This document shows, in pieces, positions 973-18,054 of a stretch of DNA of 24,000 bases. The position numbers and the translations under genes are program-made. Numbering within the stretch: position 1 is the stretch's first letter; each line of letters opens with the position of its first letter. The notes under the pieces are model-generated. The model had not been told where the DNA came from. It worked only from the letters and a program-made list of their open reading frames with translations, and made no database searches. The stretch is from Clostridia bacterium (GTDB taxonomy: Bacteria > Bacillota > Clostridia > Christensenellales > UBA1242), in the NCBI GenBank assembly GCA_017452445.1, contig JAFTMH010000005.1, forward strand, positions 15,351-39,350. The letters are read 5' to 3'.

Positions 973-996
973 GTGTTGTTGTGGTAAAATTTGAGT

Positions 997-3900
997 ATGA
1001 AAATCAAATTGGTTGAAGGTGCAACTGCTTACGAAGCGGCAATAAACACTTTGCAATATGTTGATGCAAAGGATTTGACAAAGGACAATCTTGTTGTTGT
1101 GCCTGATACTTTTTCTATGCAAGCAGAAAGTTTGCTTTTTGATGTGCTTGGCACAAAATCAGTGTTCAACGCAAAAGTGGTTGGCATTTCAAAACTTGCC
1201 AGCAGCATTTTAAGAAAAAACAACATTCCTTTTCAAAGAATTAGTGGACTTGAAGAAGTGTTTGTCGTTTTTAAAGCAGTAAAAGAATGTGAAAGCAGTT
1301 TTCAATATTTCAAAAAATGCAGTGTTGATTTTTGCATCAAAATCCTTAAAATAATAAAACAATTTAAGGCGTGCAAAGTTTTGCCAAGCGCAATAAAGAA
1401 AGTTGGCGATCAACTTTTGGATAGAAAAATGGCTGATTTAAGGCTTGTTTATCAAAAATATGAAGATTTGCTCGGTGAGCGCCTCGACTTGTCTAAAATG
1501 CTTGATTTTTTTGCAAAAAATGCAGAAAATTGCATTGATTTGTCAAATGTAAATTTATTTTTTGTAAATTTTGACAGCTTTTCAGCAGAGATAAGTTCGT
1601 TTATTTGCAAGTTGGCAGCATCTGCCAATTTGACATACATAGGCATGGCAAAACCAATTTCAGTTGGCAATGCGTTTATTTATGAAGATGACATTTTTGA
1701 AAAGGTGAAAATGTTTTCAAAAGAAAACTCTGTTTTGGTGGAAATTGAAAACAAACCAACTGCTTTGACAGGAAACAGATTGAAGCTTGTCGAAAATCTT
1801 TTTTCTTTTGATGTGACAAAAGGTGAAGATAAAAATTATTTTACAAATATTATTGCACAAAACAGACAAGACGAAGTTGAATTTGTTGCAAAATACATAA
1901 AACATCAAGCTTGGCAAGGTGGCAGATTTAAAGATTTTGCAATTGCAGTGTCTGATCCGGTTTATTATGACAAAATAAAAGAAGTTTTTTCGCAATATGA
2001 CATTACATATTATTGTGACGATGCTGTAAATTTGTCGCACACGATTTTGGGTAGATTTTTGACAAAACTTTTGCAGATTGCAAAACTTGACTTTGATAAA
2101 GAATCGCTTGAATATTTGGTTTCGCACCCATTGACAGAGTGTGAAAACAAAGCACAGATTTTGTCTGACATTTGGTATTTTAATGTTGAAGATGAAATCG
2201 AATTTGAACAAAGGTTTGGTCAGTTGAATAATATTGTTTCTGAGATAAAAAACCTTAGAAAATGCAAAAAATGTGCTGATTTTGCAATAATTTTGAAAAA
2301 AATAATCCAAATTGTTGACGAAAAATATTTAAAAATGATTGAAACCTTGCATCAAGACGATTTGTTTAAGCAAGAAAGCGAAAACGCACAAGCGAAAGAT
2401 TTGATTGTTGCTGTGCTTGACAAACTTGCTCAACTTGGAGAGCAAGACAAAATTGATTTGATAGATTTTGAAAATCTGTTTGCACTCTCTCTTGAAAGTG
2501 TTAAGGTGGAAACAATCCCATCTTATGTAGATGCTGTTTATGTTGGAGATGCAACAGGAAGTTATTTTGAAGATGTTTCGCAGTTGATTGTTTTGGGAGC
2601 AACAGCAAATGCCCTTCCTCGCACACAAGGTGATGTAGGGATCATTGATGATGCTGATATCGAAAAGTTGAGATTGAACTTTAGATTGGAACCTGAAATC
2701 AAAGTTTTAAATCGCAGAAGCAGATTGAAATTGTTTGAATGTTTGCAACACGCAAAAGACAGGCTTATTGTCTGTCAACCGGCAGCAGAAGATGGTCAAA
2801 TTTCGCAACAGGCAAGTTTTGTTGAAGATTTGAAACTTATGTTTGGCAACAATGTCGCACATACGGTTGTTTTTGAAAAAATTGAAACACCAACTTTGAC
2901 AAAAGAAGAAATGTTGAGCAAACTTTTAAGATATTTGGGCAACAAAACAAACTTGACAAATGCTTACACAAAACTTAAAGCAACAGACAGCATGCCAAAA
3001 AATTTTGCAGGCGAACTTGCACATTTGGCAGAAAACAGTGTGACAAAACCTGTTGAGTTTGAAACTTTGCCAAAAGAGATTGCAAATAAGGCAGCGTTTG
3101 CAAAAGGCACAGTTTCTGCTTCTAGACTTGAAAAATATTTTGATTGCCCGTTCAATCATTTTGTTAATTATATTTTGGGAGTAAAACAGAAAAACAACAT
3201 TCAACCAACAAAACTTTTGTTTGGAAATTTTCAACATGAGTTGATTGAAAAATTTGTTGCTGACAACAATTTTGATGTTTCAAAAGTAGATGCAAAGGGG
3301 ATTGAGAGATTTTTAGACGAAAACTTTATGACCATTGCAAAAAAACATTATGATGAAAAAATAATTTCAAAAAAGAGTTTTCTTGCTTATCTAAAAAATG
3401 AAAGTGTCATAATTTTGAGGTCTGTGGTTTATGAGCAATCAAACAGCAACTTTAGACCTGCCAAATTGGAAGAGTTTGTTGGTGGGCCAATTGCAAACGA
3501 AGTTAAACTTGTGGGCAGAGTTGATAGAATTGATGTTTGCGACAATTATTTTAGAATTTTGGATTACAAAACTGGCAATGTTGGCAGCGTTTTGAAAGAT
3601 TTGTATTATGGCAACAAATTGCAACTGTTTTTGTATGGGAAAGAAGCACAACGCAAGTTGGGCAAAGATTGTGCAGGATTGTATTATTTCAAATGCAACA
3701 CAAATTACAAGTCACAAAGTGCAAAAAACGAAAATTTGTTTAGAGGACTTACCAAAAAAGACAATGATGTTGTCGAAAATTCTGATCGCAGATTGCTAGA
3801 TGAAGGATCAAAAAGTGATATTATCGGCATGGCTAGAAAGAAAGATGATGGCAAACAAACATTTTCGTTTAAGTATGGAAGTCCCGTTGAAGATTTTGAT

Positions 3901-4086
3901 GTGCTTTTTGATTATGCAACAAAAGTTTCACAAGGTGCGATCGAAGAAATAAAGCAAGGTTACATCAAAGACAAACCTTATGAAGGCAAGTGTGAAGGTT
4001 GCCCTTATGGTGCAATCTGCAAGCATAACCCATTGAGTGGTTATAGAATTTTGCAAAAAGTCGAAAAAATAGAATTGGGAGAATAA
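997..4086 (+). CDS. addB: ATP-dependent helicase/nuclease subunit B (AddB/RexB type) with an Fe-S-stapled PD-(D/E)XK nuclease domain
   Basis: About 1030 aa, immediately upstream of and overlapping addA. The C-terminal nuclease motif is GRVDRIDV...RILDYKTG. Four Cys sit in the AddB iron-staple layout: YFDCPFNHF, then CEGCPYGAIC. The start is ambiguous between TTG 991 and ATG 997. Confidence 0.9.
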   Translation: MKIKLVEGATAYEAAINTLQYVDAKDLTKDNLVVVPDTFSMQAESLLFDVLGTKSVFNAKVVGISKLASSILRKNNIPFQRISGLEEVFVVFKAVKECESSFQYFKKCSVDFCIKILKIIKQFKACKVLPSAIKKVGDQLLDRKMADLRLVYQKYEDLLGERLDLSKMLDFFAKNAENCIDLSNVNLFFVNFDSFSAEISSFICKLAASANLTYIGMAKPISVGNAFIYEDDIFEKVKMFSKENSVLVEIENKPTALTGNRLKLVENLFSFDVTKGEDKNYFTNIIAQNRQDEVEFVAKYIKHQAWQGGRFKDFAIAVSDPVYYDKIKEVFSQYDITYYCDDAVNLSHTILGRFLTKLLQIAKLDFDKESLEYLVSHPLTECENKAQILSDIWYFNVEDEIEFEQRFGQLNNIVSEIKNLRKCKKCADFAIILKKIIQIVDEKYLKMIETLHQDDLFKQESENAQAKDLIVAVLDKLAQLGEQDKIDLIDFENLFALSLESVKVETIPSYVDAVYVGDATGSYFEDVSQLIVLGATANALPRTQGDVGIIDDADIEKLRLNFRLEPEIKVLNRRSRLKLFECLQHAKDRLIVCQPAAEDGQISQQASFVEDLKLMFGNNVAHTVVFEKIETPTLTKEEMLSKLLRYLGNKTNLTNAYTKLKATDSMPKNFAGELAHLAENSVTKPVEFETLPKEIANKAAFAKGTVSASRLEKYFDCPFNHFVNYILGVKQKNNIQPTKLLFGNFQHELIEKFVADNNFDVSKVDAKGIERFLDENFMTIAKKHYDEKIISKKSFLAYLKNESVIILRSVVYEQSNSNFRPAKLEEFVGGPIANEVKLVGRVDRIDVCDNYFRILDYKTGNVGSVLKDLYYGNKLQLFLYGKEAQRKLGKDCAGLYYFKCNTNYKSQSAKNENLFRGLTKKDNDVVENSDRRLLDEGSKSDIIGMARKKDDGKQTFSFKYGSPVEDFDVLFDYATKVSQGAIEEIKQGYIKDKPYEGKCEGCPYGAICKHNPLSGYRILQKVEKIELGE

Positions 4087-7000
4087 TGGCAAAACGAGAT
4101 CCTATTCCAGAACAATTGGCTGTTTTGGAAAATGACAAAAAAAACATGTTGGTCAGTGCCTCTGCAGGCAGTGGCAAGACTTTTATTATGATTGAATATG
4201 TCGCTAAACTTGTTGTCAAACAAAAAATCCCAGTGCAACAACTTTTGGTGCTTACATACACAAAAGCGGCTGCGACCGAAATGAAAGAAAGGTTGCTCAA
4301 AAAGTTGAAAGAAGAGTCGCAAAAAGATTTGTTTGTTGTAGAACAAATTGACAATTTGTCGACTGCCAACATTTGCACAATCCATGCTTATTGCGAAAAA
4401 TGTATAAAAAAATACGCAAATTTGCTTGATATCAACGAAAGTTTTGAAGTTTTGGACGAAAACGCTGCAAACAAATTGAAATCAACAGCATTTGTGCGTG
4501 CTTTTGAAAAAATGAAAGAATGTTATTCTGCCGAATATCAGCTTTTGGTTGAAATTTTCAAAAATGACAAAGAAAAAATCAAAACTATGATGCTTGGCAT
4601 CGAAGAATTGGCAAATTCTGTTTCTGACAAAGAAGAGTTTTTGACAAACAATGTCAAAAATATGGAAACTTATTTTGATCAAGCATTGCAGTTTTTGTGT
4701 GAAAATTTGAAAGAAAAAATCCAATCAAAATTGCACAGTTTGGAATGTTTGCATGCAGAAGATTATTATGACAAAGTCCGTGCAACCGTTTTGCCGGTTT
4801 TGAATGCAAAAGATTTGTTTGAAATTGCAACAATTAAAGAATGCTTAAAATATCCAAACAAACCAAGCGACAAATTGTATGGCAAAGAAATCGCAACTGC
4901 TGCAGGAAAAATCAAAGATTCTATCAAAAAAATGATAGATGAAGTTGAAAAGCTTGATTTGCAAGATGAAGTCAATGTAGACAAGCAAAGGTCGGGAGAG
5001 TTTGAAAAATTGTTACTCAAACTTTTTGACATCTACGAAAAAGAGCAAGAAGAACTTAAAAAGCTTAAAAATTGTCTTACATTTTCCGACTTTGAAAAAT
5101 ATATGAGCATTTTGTCAAAACAAGAAGATTTGTTTTCAAATCTTAAATATGTTTTTGTTGATGAATATCAAGATACAAACAAAATGCAAGAGAGAATTGT
5201 TAAAAATGTTGCCAAAAACTGCAATTTTGTTGCAGTTGGCGATGCAAAACAAGGGATTTATGGTTTTAGACTTGCAAGTTTTGAAATTTTTTTGAAAGAT
5301 ACCGAAAATTTTTCAAAAGATGAAAATTCGACGGTTAAAAATCTTAAAACCAATTTTAGAAGCAGTCAACATATTTTGTCATTTGTAAACAAGATTTTTG
5401 AAGTTTGCATGACAAAAGAACATTGTGGCATTGACTACAAAAAAGATGCTATGCTCAAAGAGTTTGCCCCTTTTGGCGAAGATGGGCAAAAAGCAATCAA
5501 TATAGATTTGATTGAAGAAGAAAAATTGCCAGAAAAAGAGTTGCCACAAATTTACAGCGTCAAAGAAGACGAACTTGTTGTCAAAGAAAATAAAATTGCG
5601 CAACTTGTTGACATTAGAAACAAAATTGTCGAAGTTATGCAAACTTCAATTTATGAAAACAAACAACTAAGAAGATGTCAATACAAAGATATTGCCATTT
5701 TGTTTAGGGAAAGAAACGGGCTGTTTAACCAACTTGAAAAATTTTTGATTGAAAGTGGAATTCCTGTGGTTTCAAACTCAAAAAATGTTTTGTTGGAAGA
5801 AGCAGAAATACAAGTGTTGCTCAATCTTTTAAAACTTGCTTTAAATGTTGATGATGACATTGCATTGTTGAGTGTGATCAATTCGCCATTCTGCAACATT
5901 GATTTCTTTGAAGTGGTGAAAGAAAAAGCGTCAACAGAAAAAACTCTTTGTCAGTTGGTTGTTGAAGATGAGAAGGGTTTGTTTGCTCAATTTAATCAAA
6001 CAATTGCAGATTTTTCAAAAAATATTCAAATTTTTGGTGCAAGAAGTGCATTTTTAAAACTTTTTGACAAAGTTGATTATCGTGCATACATAAACACAAA
6101 ACCAAATCAACACAATCTCAACAATTATATAGACACATTTTTGTCAGAAATTGATGCTTGTGATTTGGGTTATGATTTGCCGGGGCTTATCAATTATTTT
6201 GAAAGTGTCAAAATTACAGTGCAGTCGCAACCATCTTCAATAGGCGATGCAGTTTTGCTTACAACAATTCACAACAGCAAAGGGCTTGAATATCCAATTG
6301 TGTTTATGGCGGAGTGTGACAAAAAGATAAGAAAAAACGACACAAAATCCACAATGAGCATAAACGAAAGGTTTGGTTTTGCTGCAAAACTTTTTGATCA
6401 AGAAGAAAACACATCGGTTGATTCGGTGCGCATGAGGGCAATAAAAGAATCAAAACGAAAAAAAGAGTTTATTGAAGAACTTATGATTTTTTATGTTGCG
6501 CTTACAAGACCAAAAAATCGTTTGTATCTTTTTGGCGAGTTTAGCGACAAAATTTTTGAAGATAAAACACTTGATGAGTGTGAATGTTATTTTGATCTGA
6601 TCTTCTATGCGTTGAAAAAAGAAAAGTTTGAGTTGATGGCAAATGGCAGATACGAAGACGAAAATACGAAGATTTCTTTTGTTGGGCTAGAACAAGAAAA
6701 AACATTTGTTGAAAAACAATCTTTTGAAATGGCTGAATATGATCCGGGAATTGTGCAAAAAATCGAAAAATATCTCAATTTTGAATATAAATACAGCAGA
6801 ATTAAAAACTTTAAATTGAAAGAAAGTGTGACTGGCTTGTCAAAAAGGCATGACGAAGATCAACTTTTGAAATATTCAAACGACAATTTTGTTTTTTCAA
6901 ATAATATGGTTGAAATTGGAAACGCTTATCACTTGGCTTTGAAGTTGATTGATTTTGCAAAAGTGAGTGACGAGCAAACTTTGCATCAAGAATTGCAAAA

Positions 7001-7397
7001 ATGGAATGATGTTTTGCAAGAAGGTGCAAGTTTGATTGATGAAAAGGTGCTTTTGCGCAACATTTTGCTTCTCAAACAGGTTGTTGGAGATGGTGTTGTG
7101 TTTAAAGAAAAAGATTTTATCACAAAAGACAGCATCTGCAATTTGATTGAAGGTGAAGTTGAAAAAGACGAAATTTTTGTTCAGGGCATCATCGACTTGT
7201 TTGTTGTCAAAGGAGATGAAATAGTTTTGATTGACTATAAATATTCAAATTCTACAAGTGATGACTATCTTGTGGATAAATATAAAAATCAATTAAAATT
7301 ATACAAAAATTCGTTAAAAAATGCATTTTCTAAGCAAATAAATGATGTTTATTTGTTGTCATTAAAGCATTCAAAACTTATAAAAGTTGACATTTAA
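4086..7397 (+). CDS. addA: ATP-dependent helicase/nuclease subunit A (AddA/RexA), a UvrD-like SF1 helicase with a C-terminal nuclease
   Basis: Walker A is SASAGSGKTF and the DEYQD box is VDEYQDTN. Helicase motifs TIHNSKGLEYPIVF and YVALTRPKNRLYL are present. The C-terminal RecB-type nuclease motif is GIIDLFVV...VLIDYKYS. GGGAG lies at 4077-4081, and the start overlaps the addB stop as TAATG. Confidence 0.95.
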   Translation: MAKRDPIPEQLAVLENDKKNMLVSASAGSGKTFIMIEYVAKLVVKQKIPVQQLLVLTYTKAAATEMKERLLKKLKEESQKDLFVVEQIDNLSTANICTIHAYCEKCIKKYANLLDINESFEVLDENAANKLKSTAFVRAFEKMKECYSAEYQLLVEIFKNDKEKIKTMMLGIEELANSVSDKEEFLTNNVKNMETYFDQALQFLCENLKEKIQSKLHSLECLHAEDYYDKVRATVLPVLNAKDLFEIATIKECLKYPNKPSDKLYGKEIATAAGKIKDSIKKMIDEVEKLDLQDEVNVDKQRSGEFEKLLLKLFDIYEKEQEELKKLKNCLTFSDFEKYMSILSKQEDLFSNLKYVFVDEYQDTNKMQERIVKNVAKNCNFVAVGDAKQGIYGFRLASFEIFLKDTENFSKDENSTVKNLKTNFRSSQHILSFVNKIFEVCMTKEHCGIDYKKDAMLKEFAPFGEDGQKAINIDLIEEEKLPEKELPQIYSVKEDELVVKENKIAQLVDIRNKIVEVMQTSIYENKQLRRCQYKDIAILFRERNGLFNQLEKFLIESGIPVVSNSKNVLLEEAEIQVLLNLLKLALNVDDDIALLSVINSPFCNIDFFEVVKEKASTEKTLCQLVVEDEKGLFAQFNQTIADFSKNIQIFGARSAFLKLFDKVDYRAYINTKPNQHNLNNYIDTFLSEIDACDLGYDLPGLINYFESVKITVQSQPSSIGDAVLLTTIHNSKGLEYPIVFMAECDKKIRKNDTKSTMSINERFGFAAKLFDQEENTSVDSVRMRAIKESKRKKEFIEELMIFYVALTRPKNRLYLFGEFSDKIFEDKTLDECECYFDLIFYALKKEKFELMANGRYEDENTKISFVGLEQEKTFVEKQSFEMAEYDPGIVQKIEKYLNFEYKYSRIKNFKLKESVTGLSKRHDEDQLLKYSNDNFVFSNNMVEIGNAYHLALKLIDFAKVSDEQTLHQELQKWNDVLQEGASLIDEKVLLRNILLLKQVVGDGVVFKEKDFITKDSICNLIEGEVEKDEIFVQGIIDLFVVKGDEIVLIDYKYSNSTSDDYLVDKYKNQLKLYKNSLKNAFSKQINDVYLLSLKHSKLIKVDI

Positions 7398-7423
7398 GTC
7401 AAAGGCGAAACTGCTTGAAAATA

Positions 7424-7466
7424 GGGAAGGAAAAATGTTTTTTAAACAAAAATCCTTCTCTTTTTT
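7424..7466 (+). terminator. Possible terminator after addA
   Basis: GGGAAGGA (7424-7431) pairs with TCCTTCTC (7453-7460) with one G-T wobble, followed by T6. The loop is long (21 nt), so confidence is modest. Confidence 0.4.
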
Positions 7467-7473
7467 CATATAG

Positions 7474-7546
7474 AAAAAAATTATAAAAAAATATTTAAAA
7501 AATTATTGAAAAATATTAGTAATTATTTTTTTAGTTGTGATATACT
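7474..7546 (+). promoter_or_regulatory. Extended -10 promoter (TGaTATACT, 7538-7546) preceded by four roughly phased A-tracts
   Basis: TG at 7538-7539 and TATACT at 7541-7546, 23 nt upstream of ATG 7569. There is no good -35 hexamer. The upstream ~65 bp is almost pure A/T, with A-tracts starting at 7474, 7485, 7497 and 7509. Confidence 0.5.
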
Positions 7547-7568
7547 ATTGCATATACAAGGGGGTTTT

Positions 7569-10007
7569 ATGATTTCGACAATTTGTGATATCGTAGGCAA
7601 TGTAGTAAAATTTTTGACAAATGCTACAAACAAACTTGGTTTGGACCTTTTGACAATCATCGCTTTGGGCGTTGAAGTGCTTTTGGTGCTCTTCTTCTTG
7701 ATCAAGTCTGCACTTTCTTATGAGTCAGCTTTGAACAGAGCGTTGGACAAGGTCAACTATTGGTTGTTTGAAAAGAAAGTTGTCACTGAAGAAAATGTTA
7801 GAGAGTTGAATGATCTTTTCAAAAAGAAAGGTCCAAAAAGACTCTGCTATTATTGGCAACAATACATACTCTTTAGAGAACATGATCCATCAGAATATCT
7901 TTCAACAGACAATTTGATTGAAAAGCCATTGAAGACAAGTTCTGCACAATCAAACATCAAAAACTTGGGATTGTTTACAACTATCTGGGCTTTCATTGCA
8001 TCAATGTTTATTTTGATTGCAGAAGCAATTGAAGCAAATGTGCTTACAGGCACAGCGTTGGTTACTTCTATGCTTGTAGCATTGATTATCTGTGTGATTG
8101 GTTTTGGTTTTGTGGCTTATATGAGAGCAAGAAAGAATGCAGTGCTCAATTCGCTCTATCAAAGCGTTTCGCTTTTTGGTAGATTTATGGACAATGCCTG
8201 CGTAGATCTTCCATCATATATTGACTATCAAATTCTCTTTACTCCACAAGAAATCGAGAAGGGACAACCTGTTTTGCGTGAATTCTTGGATTATAAAGCA
8301 AGAAAAGAGAAAGAAGAATTCAACCGTTCTAAAGAAGAAATTGTTGAACATGTTTCATATGACTTCTCTGAAACAGGCGTTGACGGATCTATCGTGCTTG
8401 AAAGAGCAATGAGAGAAAGCGAACTCTTCTTGAAAAAGAAAGAAAGATTGCTCGTTAAAGTTTCTCAATTGGAATCAGAACTTGAATCTAGAAGAAAGAA
8501 CTTTGATAATGTTCAAAAAGAATCTCAAACAAAGATTCAAGCATCAAAAGAAAATATTCTTAGACTTCGTCAGATGCAAGAAGAAACAACAAACAGAATT
8601 GAAAGCAACTATTACAGAAAGCAACAAACACAAGAAATTGCTAAGCAAGAACAACTCGAACAAGAATTTGAACAACAAAGAGCAAAATACTTGCTTGAAA
8701 AGAATGAAGGCGAAGAAGAAATCAAGAAACTTAATGACGAGCTTGAAGGTTATCGCAAAAATGTTGAAAATGCAATGCTCAACGAATATCAAACATTCTT
8801 CAACAAATTCTGTAAGAGTGCAGAAAAAGTGGTTGCAAAAGTGTTTGCTGACAAGATCATTTCTTTGAAAGATCAAAATGCAAAAGATAAAGAATATATT
8901 ACTTCACTTGAAATCAAGTTGAAAAATGCTGGACAAGGTGATTTTGATTTGCCATCAGATCCAGCAACTCCAGCAACAACAAATCCAACTGAAGGTGTGA
9001 CAGACATTCCTGCAGAAGGAAGATATGACGAAGCTGGAAACTATTTGTATCCAAATGGAACATGGTACGACCCACAAGGAAACTTCCATGATGAAAACGG
9101 AAATGTTTATTCTCAAGATGGACAATTGATTTCTTCAGCAGCTGACAATGCTCAAGCTGCACAAGAAGTTGCTGCACCTGCAGAAGAAAAGAAAGTTGTA
9201 AACTTTGATGACTTTGATGACTTCGACTTTATGACAGATGTTGCACAAAAAGACGACATCTACAATGTTGCAGAAAAGGTTATTGAAGAAGTTGACACAG
9301 ATGACAGCATCGAAGTTGTAAACAACAGCGCTGAAGAAGTTGCTGCACCTGCAGAAGAATCTCCAGTTGTAGAAGAAAAGAAAGTTGTTGATGATTCGTT
9401 TGAAGATTTTGATATCGACGCACAACCAAAAGCAGAAGAAAAACCTGCTCTTGTAGATTTCGATTTTGATGAAATGGAAGAAAAATCTGATGATGGTGAT
9501 GAAGAACCTGCTGAAGCAGTAGAGGCACAACCAAAGAAAAAGGCTGGCCGTCCAAGAAAAGTTGTTACTGAAGAAAATCAAGCGCCAAAGAGAAGAGTTG
9601 GCAGACCTAAAAAAGTAGTGACAGACGAACCTGCAAAAGAAAAGAGAAGTGTTGGTAGACCAAAGAAAATTGTTAAGCCAGCAGCTGCTGAAGATGGCGA
9701 AAAGAGAGGCAGAGGTAGACCAAAAAAAACGGTTGAATCAGTTTCTGAAATAAACAAAAAACTCTCTGAAGAAGAAGCAAGATTGAGTCAAGCAAAAGAA
9801 GAAATTGACAACGAAATCAAACTTGCAGCAAATGCAATGGAAAACAATGATCCAAAGCAAGCAAGAAGAGAGCAACTTCTTAAAGAAATTGAAGCACTTC
9901 AAAACGAAGCTGCAACAGTTATGGGACAAGAAGAATCTGAAGGAAAAATTGCAGAAATTAATGCAAAACTTGAAAACCTTCTTGATGAAATTAAAAACTT
10001 GAACTAA
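7569..10007 (+). CDS. Large membrane-anchored coiled-coil protein with an acidic FD-rich region and four C-terminal AT-hook motifs (HMGA/CarD-like tail); function unknown
   Basis: ATG 7569 follows AAGGGGG (7558-7564); the track ORF from TTG 7506 runs through the promoter. Three hydrophobic segments are present: LLTIIALGVEVLLVLFFLI, LGLFTTIWAFIASMFILIAEAI, and ALVTSMLVALIICVIGFGFVAYM followed by RARKN. They are followed by about 220 aa of E/K/Q-rich heptad sequence, a G/N/Y/D-rich segment, an acidic region, and 4x GRP(R/K)K. The gene has its own promoter and a strong terminator. Confidence 0.85.
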   Translation: MISTICDIVGNVVKFLTNATNKLGLDLLTIIALGVEVLLVLFFLIKSALSYESALNRALDKVNYWLFEKKVVTEENVRELNDLFKKKGPKRLCYYWQQYILFREHDPSEYLSTDNLIEKPLKTSSAQSNIKNLGLFTTIWAFIASMFILIAEAIEANVLTGTALVTSMLVALIICVIGFGFVAYMRARKNAVLNSLYQSVSLFGRFMDNACVDLPSYIDYQILFTPQEIEKGQPVLREFLDYKARKEKEEFNRSKEEIVEHVSYDFSETGVDGSIVLERAMRESELFLKKKERLLVKVSQLESELESRRKNFDNVQKESQTKIQASKENILRLRQMQEETTNRIESNYYRKQQTQEIAKQEQLEQEFEQQRAKYLLEKNEGEEEIKKLNDELEGYRKNVENAMLNEYQTFFNKFCKSAEKVVAKVFADKIISLKDQNAKDKEYITSLEIKLKNAGQGDFDLPSDPATPATTNPTEGVTDIPAEGRYDEAGNYLYPNGTWYDPQGNFHDENGNVYSQDGQLISSAADNAQAAQEVAAPAEEKKVVNFDDFDDFDFMTDVAQKDDIYNVAEKVIEEVDTDDSIEVVNNSAEEVAAPAEESPVVEEKKVVDDSFEDFDIDAQPKAEEKPALVDFDFDEMEEKSDDGDEEPAEAVEAQPKKKAGRPRKVVTEENQAPKRRVGRPKKVVTDEPAKEKRSVGRPKKIVKPAAAEDGEKRGRGRPKKTVESVSEINKKLSEEEARLSQAKEEIDNEIKLAANAMENNDPKQARREQLLKEIEALQNEAATVMGQEESEGKIAEINAKLENLLDEIKNLN
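9163..9359 (+). repeat. Intragenic direct repeat: an identical 26-nt unit at 9163-9188 and 9334-9359 (171 nt apart, in frame)
   Basis: AAGAAGTTGCTGCACCTGCAGAAGAA occurs twice and encodes EVAAPAEE. Each copy is followed by KKVV and an acidic D/F module. Confidence 0.85.
9546..9722 (+). other. Array of four AT-hook cores (G-R-P) inside the 7569-10007 CDS
   Basis: GRP codons lie at 9546-9554, 9600-9608, 9654-9662 and 9714-9722. Their contexts are KKKAGRPRKVV, KRRVGRPKKVV, KRSVGRPKKIV and KRGRGRPKKTV. Spacing is 18, 18 and 20 aa. Confidence 0.85.
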
Positions 10008-10010
10008 AAG

Positions 10011-10039
10011 AAAAGACTGCAAATCGCAGTCTTTTTTTT
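10011..10039 (+). terminator. Rho-independent terminator of the 7569-10007 gene
   Basis: AAAAGACTGC, loop AAATC, then GCAGTCTTTT, continuing into a T-run (10032-10039). It starts 4 nt after the stop codon. Confidence 0.85.
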
Positions 10040-10110: not shown

Positions 10111-10140
10111 CAAAAAACACAACCTAAAATCTGGTTGTGT
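10111..10140 (-). terminator. Rho-independent terminator of the minus-strand unit (small membrane protein / radical SAM)
   Basis: ACACAACC (10117-10124) and GGTTGTGT (10133-10140) form an 8-bp stem. On the minus strand the hairpin is followed by TTTTTTG (complement of 10111-10117), about 20 nt downstream of the stop at 10160. Confidence 0.7.
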
Positions 10141-10159
10141 TTGAGTTTTGTAGACTTAA

Positions 10160-10456
10160 TTAAAACAATACGATATATCCTTGTACGAGTCCATAAACAA
10201 GCAAAACGATTGCCAAAATGATAAATAAAAATCCGAGAATGAAACTTATAAGTGCAGATGGAGTGCGGCGATATTCTCTGTGATAGCCACCGTTATACAT
10301 CAAAGCAAGGCCAACAAAATAAGCGACATAAGTTAATGCCAAAAAAGAATCCAATGATTTGATAAGATTGAAGTGATACAAAACAGCAAAGACAACTGCT
10401 GCGAGAGCGAATATAATGCCAAAGCCCATACATTTTTTAGGTGATATCTTTCCCAT
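10160..10456 (-). CDS. Small integral membrane protein (98 aa, about 3 TM segments), function unknown
   Basis: There is a strong SD: AAGGAGATAAATT then ATG (complement of 10454-10469). Hydrophobic stretches are GFGIIFALAAVVFAVL, LALTYVAYFVGLALM and LISFILGFLFIILAIVLLVYGLV. Confidence 0.75.
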   Translation of the reverse strand: MGKISPKKCMGFGIIFALAAVVFAVLYHFNLIKSLDSFLALTYVAYFVGLALMYNGGYHREYRRTPSALISFILGFLFIILAIVLLVYGLVQGYIVLF

Positions 10457-13474: not shown

Positions 13475-14161
13475 TTATGCTTTTGGTTTTGTTGCAGTGC
13501 TTGCGCTTGCTGCTCGTTTTATTTTTTTTCTTGTTTTTGATTGTTTCAAATCTTGCAAAGAGAGTTTTCTCTCTTTTACTGCCTTGATGATGTCTTCGCT
13601 GAGCAAAACTTTTCTAAATTGTTCGTTGTTGATGTTTTTGATGTCGATGATGTCGTCCTCATCAATAAAATCATATTCGATAATGTGTGCAGCAGTTTTG
13701 TTCTTTTCCAAAATTTGGATCATTTCGCTGATAAATGCTCTTTGCAATCCCCAAAGTATGTCTTGATTTTCTTCTTGCAACCCGTTCAAGAAAATGTCAA
13801 AATACAAAACTACAACATCAAGCACCAAAACTCTGCGACCTCTAAAAACTTCTGGTTTGTTGATTTTGTAGTCGCCATCGAGTTGATTTTTGAAAAACAA
13901 TCTTCCCATGTCAATACTTGCTGAAAGGTCAACCAAAGATTTTGAAATACCTTCTTTGTCTGCAGTTGTTGGGTGCCTTAAATATAAAGATTTCATTATG
14001 TATGCAGTTTTTTCAAACCAAGCTTTCATTGCGCCATAGTTGTCGTGTGCAAGAGTTTGATTTTGTATGTGTGTGCTGTGCGAAATTGCAAGTGCTGCAA
14101 TAAGAGTTGAAGCAAATGACATAACAACACTTATGATTGCAATAATTTCTGAAATATCCAT
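13475..14161 (-). CDS. Hypothetical N-terminally membrane-anchored protein (228 aa) with a basic C-terminal tail
   Basis: ATG at 14161-14159 follows AGGAGA (complement of 14169-14174); the track start 14224 is an extension. The N-terminal TM segment is IIAIISVVMSFASTLIAALAI. The tail is KQSKTRKKIKRAASASTATKPKA. I recognise no catalytic motif. Confidence 0.75.
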   Translation of the reverse strand: MDISEIIAIISVVMSFASTLIAALAISHSTHIQNQTLAHDNYGAMKAWFEKTAYIMKSLYLRHPTTADKEGISKSLVDLSASIDMGRLFFKNQLDGDYKINKPEVFRGRRVLVLDVVVLYFDIFLNGLQEENQDILWGLQRAFISEMIQILEKNKTAAHIIEYDFIDEDDIIDIKNINNEQFRKVLLSEDIIKAVKERKLSLQDLKQSKTRKKIKRAASASTATKPKA

Positions 14162-14284
14162 ATTTATATCTCCTAAAAAAATTATATAAAGTTTGTTTAG
14201 GTTAGTCAAATTTTTGAAAGACAATTTTTGCAGTTGACAACTTTGGGGCGATATGTTAATCTAAAACTGAAATAGGAGGGGGAT

Positions 14285-16598: not shown

Positions 16599-16628
16599 TT
16601 GACACTAGGTTTGTTTGTGTGTTATAAT
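16599..16628 (+). promoter_or_regulatory. Near-consensus SigA promoter for the 16666 gene
   Basis: TTGACA (16599-16604), an 18-nt spacer, then TGtTATAAT (16620-16628). Confidence 0.65.
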
Positions 16629-16665
16629 ATATAAGATTGATGTTGTCAATCTGGGAGGGGATAAT

Positions 16666-18054
16666 ATGAAAAGTCACGAAATAGAATCAGAAATCCAATT
16701 TTTGTTTGACTCTGTTGAATTTGGCTCTGATAGATATTATGATTTGAGCAAAGGGGCAGAATATGTTTGCGATCAAATTGTTGCAGACATTGACAAGCAA
16801 AACTTTTCAGATTTGAAAGTGCTCGTGCTTATGGTGATGAAATCATATTTGAAAGTAGGCCGCAGAGAAGAAATGAAACCTTTTGTATCTCGTTCTGCAA
16901 TCAAACTTACTGACACATATGGATTGTTGACAAAGTTTTTTGACGAATATGTGGAAAAGGGCGCTTCTTGCAAAACAAATGAAGAAGCAAACAAAATTTT
17001 GGCAAAAATTTACATTGCTGGCATGCAACAAATTTTTGGCGACGAAGTTTTGATGCTTGATGTGTTTGCTGGCAAGAAAAACGAATCATTGAAAAATGCA
17101 CTTACAACTGTGGCAAGAGCAGAAGGTTATACACTCAGCCCAAGGACAAAAAGATTGGCAAGTAGACCAGTAGCAACAAAAGCAGGACAAGTTGCTGACG
17201 GCAAATATCAAGACGCGTTGCTTAAAAAATATGAAGCATTTACTTTTGAATTTTTGAGAAGATTTGACCTTTTTGTTTCAGAAAAAATGGACAAAGCTGT
17301 TGCTGTTGAATTTTTGGAATTGATCAAATCAATTTCTCATATTATGGAAAGCAGAATGAGTGAAGCAACAAAACATTCTACAAAAGGTCAAGTTGCAATC
17401 GAAATGGCCAGAAAAGCAATCGAACATATTGACTGGCAACTTGAAACTACATATATTGTTGAAGAGGAAAGATTGCCATATTATCAACAAGTTCAAAATG
17501 CAATTTCAAGATACAAAAAAGGTCAACATTCTGAAAAAGACAAACAAACACTTGATTTGCTTATGGACAGAATTGGCGCAATGCATCAACTTCTTGCTTG
17601 GAAAGACGAAAACGGTTATAGAAGACCAGCAAACTTTTATGTGGTTTCTGCAGGCATGACAGCGCAACAAACAAAAAATGTTTTGAAGGCGCTTGAAACA
17701 ATTGGTTATGCAAAAACAGAAGCAGAAAGAGCAAGCATAAGAGAAACAAAAACTCTTCTTTCAATGAGTTTTGACACTTTGCATGTTGCAAGCACAACAC
17801 CGGTCGATGTTGAAAGGGCACTTGATATTTATCGTACAAAAATCGTTTCTGCTGATGGAAGACAAAGAGATTATGCAAGTCCAGAAGCGTATGCAAAATA
17901 TTGCGCGACAGTTGAAGAGTGGTTGAAAAAGTTTGACATTCCTCATTATGAAGAAGCAATCAGAGCAATTGGTTATGACATTGTTCAAGAAAGAGAACCT
18001 ATTGTTATTCCAGAAAAAGCTGTTGTTGCAACACAAGCATTTACAAAAAATTAA
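16666..18054 (+). CDS. Hypothetical 462-aa soluble, probably all-helical protein; no recognisable motif
   Basis: ATG 16666 follows GGGAGGGG (16653-16660); the track start 16615 lies inside the promoter. The frame is long and uninterrupted with neighbour-like codon usage, and it has its own promoter and terminator. No Walker, nuclease, HTH, TM or metal-binding motif is seen by eye. Confidence 0.8.
   Translation: MKSHEIESEIQFLFDSVEFGSDRYYDLSKGAEYVCDQIVADIDKQNFSDLKVLVLMVMKSYLKVGRREEMKPFVSRSAIKLTDTYGLLTKFFDEYVEKGASCKTNEEANKILAKIYIAGMQQIFGDEVLMLDVFAGKKNESLKNALTTVARAEGYTLSPRTKRLASRPVATKAGQVADGKYQDALLKKYEAFTFEFLRRFDLFVSEKMDKAVAVEFLELIKSISHIMESRMSEATKHSTKGQVAIEMARKAIEHIDWQLETTYIVEEERLPYYQQVQNAISRYKKGQHSEKDKQTLDLLMDRIGAMHQLLAWKDENGYRRPANFYVVSAGMTAQQTKNVLKALETIGYAKTEAERASIRETKTLLSMSFDTLHVASTTPVDVERALDIYRTKIVSADGRQRDYASPEAYAKYCATVEEWLKKFDIPHYEEAIRAIGYDIVQEREPIVIPEKAVVATQAFTKN

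Follow-up and report, generated by a model that had tools for sequence, protein, structure and literature searches.

A family of membrane-embedded stalk proteins with a putative DNA-binding tail, encoded next to addB-addA in Clostridia and predicted to resemble the ring subunits of 5:2 ion-driven motors

The window analyzed here, a stretch of 24,000 nucleotides from a Clostridia bacterium (contig JAFTMH010000005.1 of GenBank assembly GCA_017452445.1, positions 15,351 to 39,350), contains, just downstream of the addB-addA gene pair, an open reading frame (ORF; 7569-10007, + strand) that encodes an 812-aa membrane protein, here labeled X. The genes of the window are arranged in the order Y (an unannotated coiled-coil protein), addB, addA, X, a convergent gene for a 98-aa membrane protein, a radical-SAM gene, and CNNM/CorC, followed farther downstream by groES/groEL, an unannotated 479-aa ORF, dnaG, and the gene for a sigma-70 factor (sigA). 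The window has a GC content of 34.8% and is 99% identical to a contig (L002) of a Candidatus Caccovivens sp. metagenome-assembled genome (MAG); judging from the taxonomy, the host lineage is presumably Gram-positive. Structural modeling suggests that the X family is an unannotated variant of the ring-subunit architecture of 5:2 motors that combines a putative DNA-binding tail with the absence of a visible axle subunit and with core-like, vertical inheritance.

Gene X and the modules of its product

The coding sequence of X (812 aa plus stop) starts with the ATG at 7569, which encodes the same start methionine as in the homologs and is preceded by a ribosome-binding site (aaggggg, 7558-7564); the stop codon ends at 10007. 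An identical protein in the database carries the label 'hypothetical protein [Clostridia bacterium]'. At the end of the gene lies an intrinsic-terminator hairpin with a U-run (10007-10039, +; dG -17.1, z -5.7), which bears out the strong terminator reported in the preliminary description of this DNA. On the addA side, the gap between addA and X holds another terminator-like hairpin with a U-run (7416-7468, +; dG -21.5 kcal/mol, z -3.9) that was missed by a consensus terminator scan because its loop is long. Given the two hairpins, it is plausible that X is a separate, stand-alone transcription unit, as previously proposed. Reading through the region upstream of X (7398-7568), we saw no SOS/LexA box.

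The preliminary description also held that X is enriched in C-ending codons, and for the four codons that it listed this is the case: the TTC/(TTC+TTT) ratio is 0.41 in X vs 0.06 in addA/addB and 0.00 in groEL/groES, CTC accounts for 0.16 of the Leu codons in X vs 0.03-0.06 in addA/addB, and ATC and GAC are also more common in X than in addA/addB. The accompanying suggestion of high expression was rejected because the overall frequency of C in third codon positions is unchanged (0.14 in X vs 0.13-0.14 in addA/addB) and groEL/groES do not show the TTC bias. The GC content of third codon positions is 0.36 in the part of the gene that encodes the membrane domain (7569-8438, codons 1-290) vs 0.20-0.24 in the remaining gene.

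All the modules listed in the preliminary description are present in X, as indicated by the ORF, hydropathy, composition, and AT_hook score. Hydropathy delineates three hydrophobic segments, at residues ~25-47, 133-155, and 160-185, the last one followed by RARKN (186-190). The first transmembrane helix (TM1; residues 25-47; 7641-7709, +) falls within helix 2-48 of the AlphaFold2 (AF2) model; residues 1-24, modeled as continuous with TM1, are predicted to be extracellular. Then come a K/R-rich helical domain predicted to be cytoplasmic (residues 48-132; 7710-7964, +; hydropathy, alignments, and AF2), the TM2-TM3 hairpin (residues 133-185; 7965-8123, +; hydropathy and alignments), and a cytoplasmic extension of TM3 (residues 186-272, RARKN..FGRFMDNACVDLPSYIDYQILFTPQEIEKGQPVLREFL; 8124-8384, +), which is the best-conserved block by column identity and invariant positions. 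The TM1-TM2 loop (48-132) includes at least 14 K/R residues, the TM2-TM3 turn (156-160) includes none, and RARK follows TM3; under the positive-inside rule, the K/R-rich loop and the K/R-free turn predict an N-out/C-in topology in which both the large loop and the long C-terminal part are cytoplasmic, the latter in agreement with the preliminary description. The loop contains several positions that are conserved family-wide (SYE 50-52, P89, W96-Q97, R103, and P120). In a diverse alignment of 40 sequences, P215, F224, E228, and L236, all located in the TM3 extension, are invariant; D-Y-(E/Q)-x-L-F-T (219-225), E228-I229, and P234 are also conserved across the diverse family.

Downstream of the membrane domain, the E/K/Q-rich helical region of X spans residues ~240-455 and encompasses the stalk (residues 273-455; 8385-8933, +; alignments, AF2, and periodicity), which, if it forms one continuous helix, would be ~27 nm long. 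The preliminary description counted about 220 aa of heptad sequence here; in the family alignment, however, the hydrophobic period of the stalk peaks at 3.66 (11/3), so that the stalk is mostly hendecad and only residues 273-330, with a period of ~3.5, are heptad-like. A near-invariant motif, TNRIExNY (341-348), implies that the stalk is not a mere spacer.

The tail begins with a module rich in G, N, Y, and D (residues 484-520; 9018-9128, +), recognizable in the sequence by repeats of the form [YFH]D-x-x-G-N-x-[YFV], and continues with a region defined by acidic composition and low conservation (residues 521-655; 9129-9533, +) that reaches a net charge of -20 in the 60-aa window from residue 587 and contains the acidic-aromatic motifs NFDDFDDFDF, SFEDFDID, and VDFDFDE. 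The basic region that follows (9534-9734, +) carries four AT-hooks, GRPRK at 660, GRPKK at 678, GRPKK at 696, and RGRGRPKK at 713-720 (GRP at 716), spaced by 18-20 residues, and matches Pfam AT_hook (PF02178) with 21.8 bits vs a cut-off of 17.4. The C-terminal segment, helical according to alignments and periodicity (residues 723-812; 9735-10004, +), closes with a short amphipathic helix (..IAEINAKLENLLDEIKNLN); helices of this type recur among the family members, usually with a Lys-rich end after them. Judging from the sequence, the hooks could bind the minor groove of AT-rich DNA and might thereby tether the chromosome to the membrane.

The tail had been likened to those of HMGA and of CarD from Myxococcus xanthus, and the layout indeed agrees: in CarD, the acidic part comes first and the hooks second, and X likewise displays an acidic stretch followed by four hooks, each with a G-R-P core and K/R flanks. 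Beyond this layout, the proteins differ: Pfam detects no CarD_TRCF domain (the RNA-polymerase-interacting domain) in X, the hooks make up a small part of a large membrane protein, the full R-G-R-P is found only in the fourth hook, and the hooks are not conserved across the X family. EzrA, RacA/DivIVA, Noc, and FtsK/SpoIIIE resemble X in broad concept, in that coiled coils or DNA-binding modules connect the membrane with the chromosome or the division machinery, but differ in membrane topology, fold, and DNA-binding module, and the Pfam and NCBIfam searches with X produced no match to these families.

More generally, Pfam and NCBIfam searches with the full-length X yielded AT_hook only. This is also the sum of the results with PADLOC, PHROGs, and PDB profiles added, in line with the earlier statement that X belongs to no named bacterial family; a confident match of the whole protein to a characterized family was not found in Pfam, NCBIfam, or PADLOC. 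A PADLOC match to LmuB (E 7e-6, residues 288-431) was discounted as a coiled-coil match, and the sub-threshold Pfam matches of the TM hairpin in 40 family members (DUF2207_C in 7 of the 40, best E 9e-5; Tetraspanin; MARVEL) were treated as compositional.

Predicted fold of the membrane domain and stalk

The ring architecture of 5:2 motors is so far known from flagellar stators, the Ton/Tol systems, gliding and type IX secretion, and Zorya. Residues 1-300 of X were modeled with AF2 from two alignments, one of 15 sequences and the other of 40 diverse sequences. The 15-sequence model is all-helical, with a predicted local distance difference test score (pLDDT) of 76, and a Foldseek search with it against the PDB ranks ZorA first (E 1.6e-3), followed by ExbB, TolQ, and PomA. 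The 40-sequence model is of higher confidence (pLDDT 89.2; predicted TM-score 0.71), and with this model the first four PDB matches are all ZorA entries (E 1.3e-4 to 7e-4, probability 1.00, TM-scores 0.42-0.51), with ExbB, TolQ, and MotA-PomA filling ranks 5-45; of the top 45 matches, 44 are A (ring) subunits of 5:2 motors. Thus, structure prediction combined with Foldseek, which the preliminary description had proposed for the N-terminal domain, points to the fold of ZorA, ExbB, TolQ, and PomA. In that description, the hydrophobic segments figured as an anchor; the membrane domain is instead the best-conserved part of X, with a predicted fold of its own.

The modeled anatomy includes TM1, cytoplasmic helices within residues 51-121, the TM2-TM3 hairpin with the last helix (160-213) reaching into the cytoplasm, and the long tail; in the fold matches, residues 48-132 take the position of the membrane-proximal cytoplasmic domain of ZorA and ExbB. 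The best match, ZorA of the type I Zorya system (E. coli ZorA5B2; PDB 8qyd, 8qyk, and 8qyy; PMC11946911), shares with X the three TM helices, the membrane-proximal cytoplasmic domain, and a long, helical C-terminal cytoplasmic tail. The E. coli ZorA tail, which spans approximately residues 223-729, has been modeled as a pentameric right-handed coiled coil and is required for function (PMC11946911). The 11/3 period of the X stalk would be expected if this part, too, formed a right-handed coiled coil. The two proteins nevertheless differ in many respects: there is no detectable sequence similarity between ZorA and X; ZorA has no counterpart of the disordered tail of X with its acidic region and AT-hooks; the X loci include no zorB, zorC, or zorD neighbors; X is core-like and vertically inherited, whereas ZorA is island-borne; and X belongs to Bacillota (Clostridia), with no peptidoglycan-binding partner of the ZorB type seen near it. 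With ExbB and TolQ, X appears to share the topology predicted from its sequence, namely, N-out, TM1, a large cytoplasmic loop, the TM2-TM3 hairpin, and C-in; the C-terminal extension of more than 500 residues in X is missing in ExbB, TolQ, and MotA-PomA (PF01618).

In ring subunits of 5:2 motors, polar (Thr/Ser) and Pro residues of the inner TM helices line the ion path. In the X family, a Pro occupies position 171 in TM3 in 109 of the 117 family members compared, and most relatives of X in the Caccovivens clade keep this residue. In TM2, position 137 is T/S in 70 and position 144 is S/T in 72 of the 117; these positions are at best candidate counterparts of T147 and S184 of ZorA.

The X family and the addB-addA neighborhood

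A word-indexed homolog search, with counts taken among the candidates scored, identified 553 relatives of X at E<=1e-3, of which the best 120 all carry 4-8 hooks and share the same start. When 1.84 billion representatives were searched with a profile of X residues 1-290, 219 clusters (50% identity) were retrieved, of which 146 had E<1e-30; the matching proteins typically have a length of 650-1,400 residues, and in every case the whole N-terminal domain is covered by the match. All named sources are MAGs of uncultured Clostridia, Christensenellaceae, or Eubacteriales. No relatives were detected among IMG/VR viral contigs, and there was no match in PHROGs. The literature surveyed on ZorA, ExbB, and TolQ and on bacterial membrane-anchored AT-hook proteins contains no description of the X family.

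Within the close clade, column identity reaches 92-97% in residues 200-240 and 90-95% in the stalk (320-380), compared to 76-82% in the TM1-TM2 loop; the G/N/Y/D module shows 73-80% identity, and the linker and acidic regions are poorly conserved. Among 113 full-length representatives, 81 have a strongly acidic window and 36 contain similar G/N/Y motifs at least twice; the C-terminus of many family members is formed by a short amphipathic helix with lysines after it. Because the membrane domain and the stalk are conserved and the tail is variable, it is by the former that the family is defined, and the AT-hooks, which were central to the architecture as first described, are not a family-defining feature. 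Fewer than two hooks are present in 63 representatives; a strongly basic 60-residue window of another kind was found in 28 of these and is lacking in the other 35, and one hook-less member matches a histone-H1-like HC2 domain (PF07382).

The position of X next to addB (991-4086, +; Pfam ADDB_N/PDDEXK_1) and addA (4086-7397, +; Pfam UvrD-helicase/UvrD_C/PDDEXK_1), which was overlooked in the preliminary description, is nearly universal. We compared 79 related loci (80 including the window), namely, 73 loci from GTDB species representatives along with L001, L075, L076, L079, L080, and L081, and found addB-addA just upstream of X in 78 of the 79. In all 73 GTDB loci, where the N-terminal domain is 40-99% identical to that of X and the GC content is 25-38%, addA precedes X and, in loci that extend far enough, is itself preceded by Y and addB, and the downstream genes vary. 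The same block surrounds P0368, P0322, P0353, and P0158, distant members that are hook-less or divergent (in L075, L076, L080, and L081). Across the 56 loci in which all three proteins were scored, the identity of X correlates with that of AddA (r 0.91) and AddB (r 0.95), and the identity of X is 53%, compared to 46% for AddA/AddB. X diverges in step with AddAB and is more conserved; thus, X is vertically inherited and strongly constrained, and a housekeeping role fits better than one in mobile defense. The adjacency of X to addBA is suggestive, though no proof, of a functional link.

Gene Y (217-972, +), identified as an ORF and by synteny, encodes a 251-aa coiled-coil protein and lies 19 nt upstream of addB. 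At the distant loci, Y corresponds to a gene of ~105 residues equivalent to its C-terminal part in L075 and L076 and to a 236-275-aa ORF in L080 and L081; in the former two, the C-terminal ~100 residues (EEEINSLFLGLVKLVKK.. and a coiled coil) persist as a 103-111-aa gene (L075 1691-2026, L076 1699-2010). Residues ~29-88 of Y show sub-threshold similarity to Siphovirus Gp157 (Pfam, E 0.022) and to 'Mu Gam-like end protection' (PHROG, E 0.044), so that a DNA-end-binding modulator of AddAB might be considered as a lead for Y.

Proposed role of X, alternatives, and other genes of the window

We propose that X is a stalk protein that is embedded in the membrane and follows the design of the ring (A) subunits of 5:2 motors, with ZorA as the closest structural match to the model; taken as a whole, we consider this proposal about equally likely to be right or wrong. 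The membrane module would consist of a peripheral TM1, the helical cytoplasmic domain, and the TM2-TM3 hairpin with its last helix entering the cytoplasm; by analogy, it probably oligomerizes, most likely into a pentamer, and its stalk, a right-handed coiled coil, would extend ~25 nm into the cytoplasm. At the tip of the stalk, each chain would bear a flexible tail of ~350 residues that encompasses the G/N/Y module, the acidic segment, the four hooks, and the terminal helix. Through minor-groove binding by the hooks, either to the chromosome, which is AT-rich (35% GC), or to incoming DNA, the complex would hold DNA at the membrane; the preceding segment, acidic and rich in aromatic residues, may either mask the hooks or interact with partners, and docking might take place at the conserved stalk motif and at the terminal helix. 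Considering that X adjoins addB-addA and co-diverges with AddAB, such a complex would most likely have a housekeeping function, inherited vertically, in the processing of DNA ends or the maintenance of the chromosome at the membrane. The base of X would then be specialized and possibly force-generating, and would probably work alongside AddAB. The modules, the conservation pattern, the periodicity of the stalk, the predicted fold match, and the synteny and co-divergence are results of the analysis; in this scheme, we infer the oligomeric state, the DNA binding, the functional link to AddAB, and any ion conduction or rotation by X.

The narrower claim, that X is built like the ring subunit of a 5:2 motor, appears to us somewhat better founded, and we lean toward accepting it; X may or may not be a working ion-driven motor. 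Several observations weigh against this assignment and the role built on it. Sequence comparison fails to connect X to the known ring subunits: PADLOC gives no ZorA match for X, Pfam detects no MotA_ExbB domain (PF01618) in X and 40 family members, and PDB sequence-profile searches with two X-family alignments (A1 and A2) produced nothing meaningful. In the hhalign comparisons, X residues 133-206 fall in register on residues 140-212 of E. coli TolQ without reaching significance (E 0.027, probability 1.8%), A2 against E. coli ExbB yields a likewise non-significant E of 0.21, and A2 against a 12-sequence ExbB/TolQ alignment assembled from plasmid records yields an E of 0.23 and a probability of 0.3%. 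The TM-scores are borderline to moderate, and the model is that of a monomer; the X stalk comprises ~180 residues vs ~500 in E. coli ZorA; X itself has Ala171 (codon at 8079-8081) in place of the TM3 Pro; and no acidic residue inside the TM helices is conserved family-wide, E36 being present in just 23 of the 117 members. An axle (B) subunit would be expected to be encoded in an adjacent gene and to combine a single TM helix, bearing the essential Asp, with a periplasmic or peptidoglycan-binding domain; there is no such MotB/ExbD/TolR/ZorB-like gene within ~8-9 kb of X in the 80 loci (1.17 Mb), and phmmer searches of the 3,420 ORFs of these loci with E. coli TolR and ExbD gave a best E of 0.15. 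As for the DNA-related setting, about half of the family lacks the hooks, at least two of which (GRP) occur in 50 of the 113 full-length representatives; one member, P0374 (L079 9001-11565), departs from the addBA neighborhood, its upstream neighbor being an HD_4/TGS (RelA/SpoT-like) gene and spoIIE and mscL lying close by; addA and X are always separated by a gap of 38-401 nt, which in the window holds the terminator-like hairpin; and since synteny in general is fairly high in these genomes, the adjacency may be inherited gene order.

Two further results are encouraging, if weak. In all three hhalign alignments, the TM2 sequence 'LGLFTTIWAFIAS' of X is aligned in register with 'IGLFGTVWGIMHAF' of TolQ (TolQ/ExbB 'GLFGTVWGIM'), and when the ORFs of the 80 loci were searched with E. 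coli TolQ, the best eight sub-threshold phmmer matches were all X orthologs.

The tether between membrane and nucleoid that the preliminary description put forward stands with respect to the architecture and the predicted cytoplasmic tail of X; its generic anchor and heptad spacer do not hold up, nor do the AT-hooks as the mark of the family. A purely passive version, in which hydrophobic helices serve as the anchor, a dimeric coiled coil as the spacer, and the hooks pin the nucleoid, would make the likeness to ZorA and ExbB coincidental. Such coincidence would agree with the lack of a significant sequence or profile link to MotA_ExbB or ZorA, with the failure to find a B subunit in the 80 loci, and with TM-scores of only 0.42-0.51, and the hooks are indeed present and conserved in the close clade; but a mere anchor and spacer should drift, whereas in X conservation across the family is highest in the anchor, including its cytoplasmic loop, and in the spacer, the stalk has a period of 11/3 and not that of a heptad, hooks are missing in half of the family, and the two independent models agree, with 44 of 45 fold matches falling in one superfamily and not among random helical bundles. 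On balance, we hold a passive tether to be unlikely, albeit a serious contender. It is considerably less probable that the function of X is not primarily concerned with DNA, with the membrane-stalk core serving as a scaffold for envelope, division, or sporulation, the tail recruiting proteins via the G/N/Y repeats, FDDF motifs, and terminal helix, and the hooks being a lineage-specific add-on. The limited spread of the hooks and the 35 members that have neither two hooks nor a strongly basic window would be readily explained in this manner, as would the recurrence of the terminal amphipathic helix with its Lys-rich end and of the G/N/Y motifs regardless of the hooks, and the location of P0374 near spoIIE rather than addBA. 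Yet all 120 close relatives keep 4-8 hooks, many hook-less members possess other basic, histone-like tails, and the addBA neighborhood is nearly universal among the examined loci.

The prominence of ZorA among the fold matches brings up defense: AddAB degrades linear DNA, and X could be a Zorya-like immune sensor that detects envelope perturbation or incoming phage DNA at the membrane, captures AT-rich linear DNA, and passes it to AddAB acting in the role of ZorC/ZorD. Not only is ZorA, with its long cytoplasmic tail, the best structural match, and X adjoins addB-addA in 78 of the 79 related loci, but in Zorya communication with ZorC, which binds DNA, and with ZorD, a nuclease, depends on the tail (PMC11946911). 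However, no zorB, zorC, or zorD neighbors of X exist in the window or the 79 related loci, and PADLOC does not recognize X as ZorA; defense systems are patchy and island-borne, whereas X is inherited vertically in step with AddAB and is the more conserved of these proteins; the genes around X are of the housekeeping type, with groEL, dnaG, and sigA present in the window and the ribosomal S10 operon in L076 and L081; and X has no relatives in viral contigs and appears to be transcribed separately from addA. We accordingly regard an immune function of this kind as improbable. The most far-reaching version of our own proposal, namely, that X forms the ring of a hitherto unrecognized ion-driven rotary machine of Gram-positive gut Clostridia, with the axle encoded elsewhere or absent and with a rotating pentameric stalk that holds on to DNA directly via up to twenty AT-hooks, is a long shot, and just as speculative is the corollary that this device, powered by the membrane potential, would act together with AddAB to twist, reel, or position DNA at the membrane.

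Should the predicted fold be borne out, the known range of 5:2-motor ring architectures would widen in three directions, to a vertically inherited, core-like gene of Bacillota (Clostridia), to a ring subunit without a visible axle partner, and to one with a DNA-binding tail. X would then be a candidate for attaching DNA to the membrane in small-genome, AT-rich gut Clostridia (Caccovivens and related bacteria, possibly Christensenellales-like), a family of ~220 clusters at 50% identity in which all members are currently labeled 'hypothetical protein' would gain a name, and the near-universal position next to addB-addA would provide a way to test whether a membrane complex is linked to the processing of double-strand ends.

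Several genes were considered as candidates for the B subunit and rejected: the 98-aa neighbor with three TM segments (10160-10456, -), which only the close clade keeps and which has no MotB-like features; orf249 (13475-14224, -), which is not conserved; Y, which is soluble; and the genes downstream of X in the distant loci, which are mutually unrelated (UppP-like, short-chain-dehydrogenase-like, response-regulator-like, and others). The 98-aa protein contains three hydrophobic segments, has no Pfam or PADLOC match, and is kept in the Caccovivens-like clade and absent from the distant loci. Between the X terminator and this convergent gene, a second hairpin (10115-10142; 10 pairs, 8-nt loop) folds on either strand and may terminate the 98-aa gene. 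The 479-aa ORF between groEL and dnaG (16615-18054, +) has a weak match to CTD10 of ABC-3C systems (E 0.09) as its sole match. The ORF at 13475-14224 (-) encodes a protein of ~226-249 aa that belongs to no family, with an N-terminal hydrophobic helix and a Lys-rich C-terminus; its sole match is a weak one to PycC of PADLOC (E 0.006, residues 151-181 of 249 aa), and it is conserved only in a near-identical MAG.

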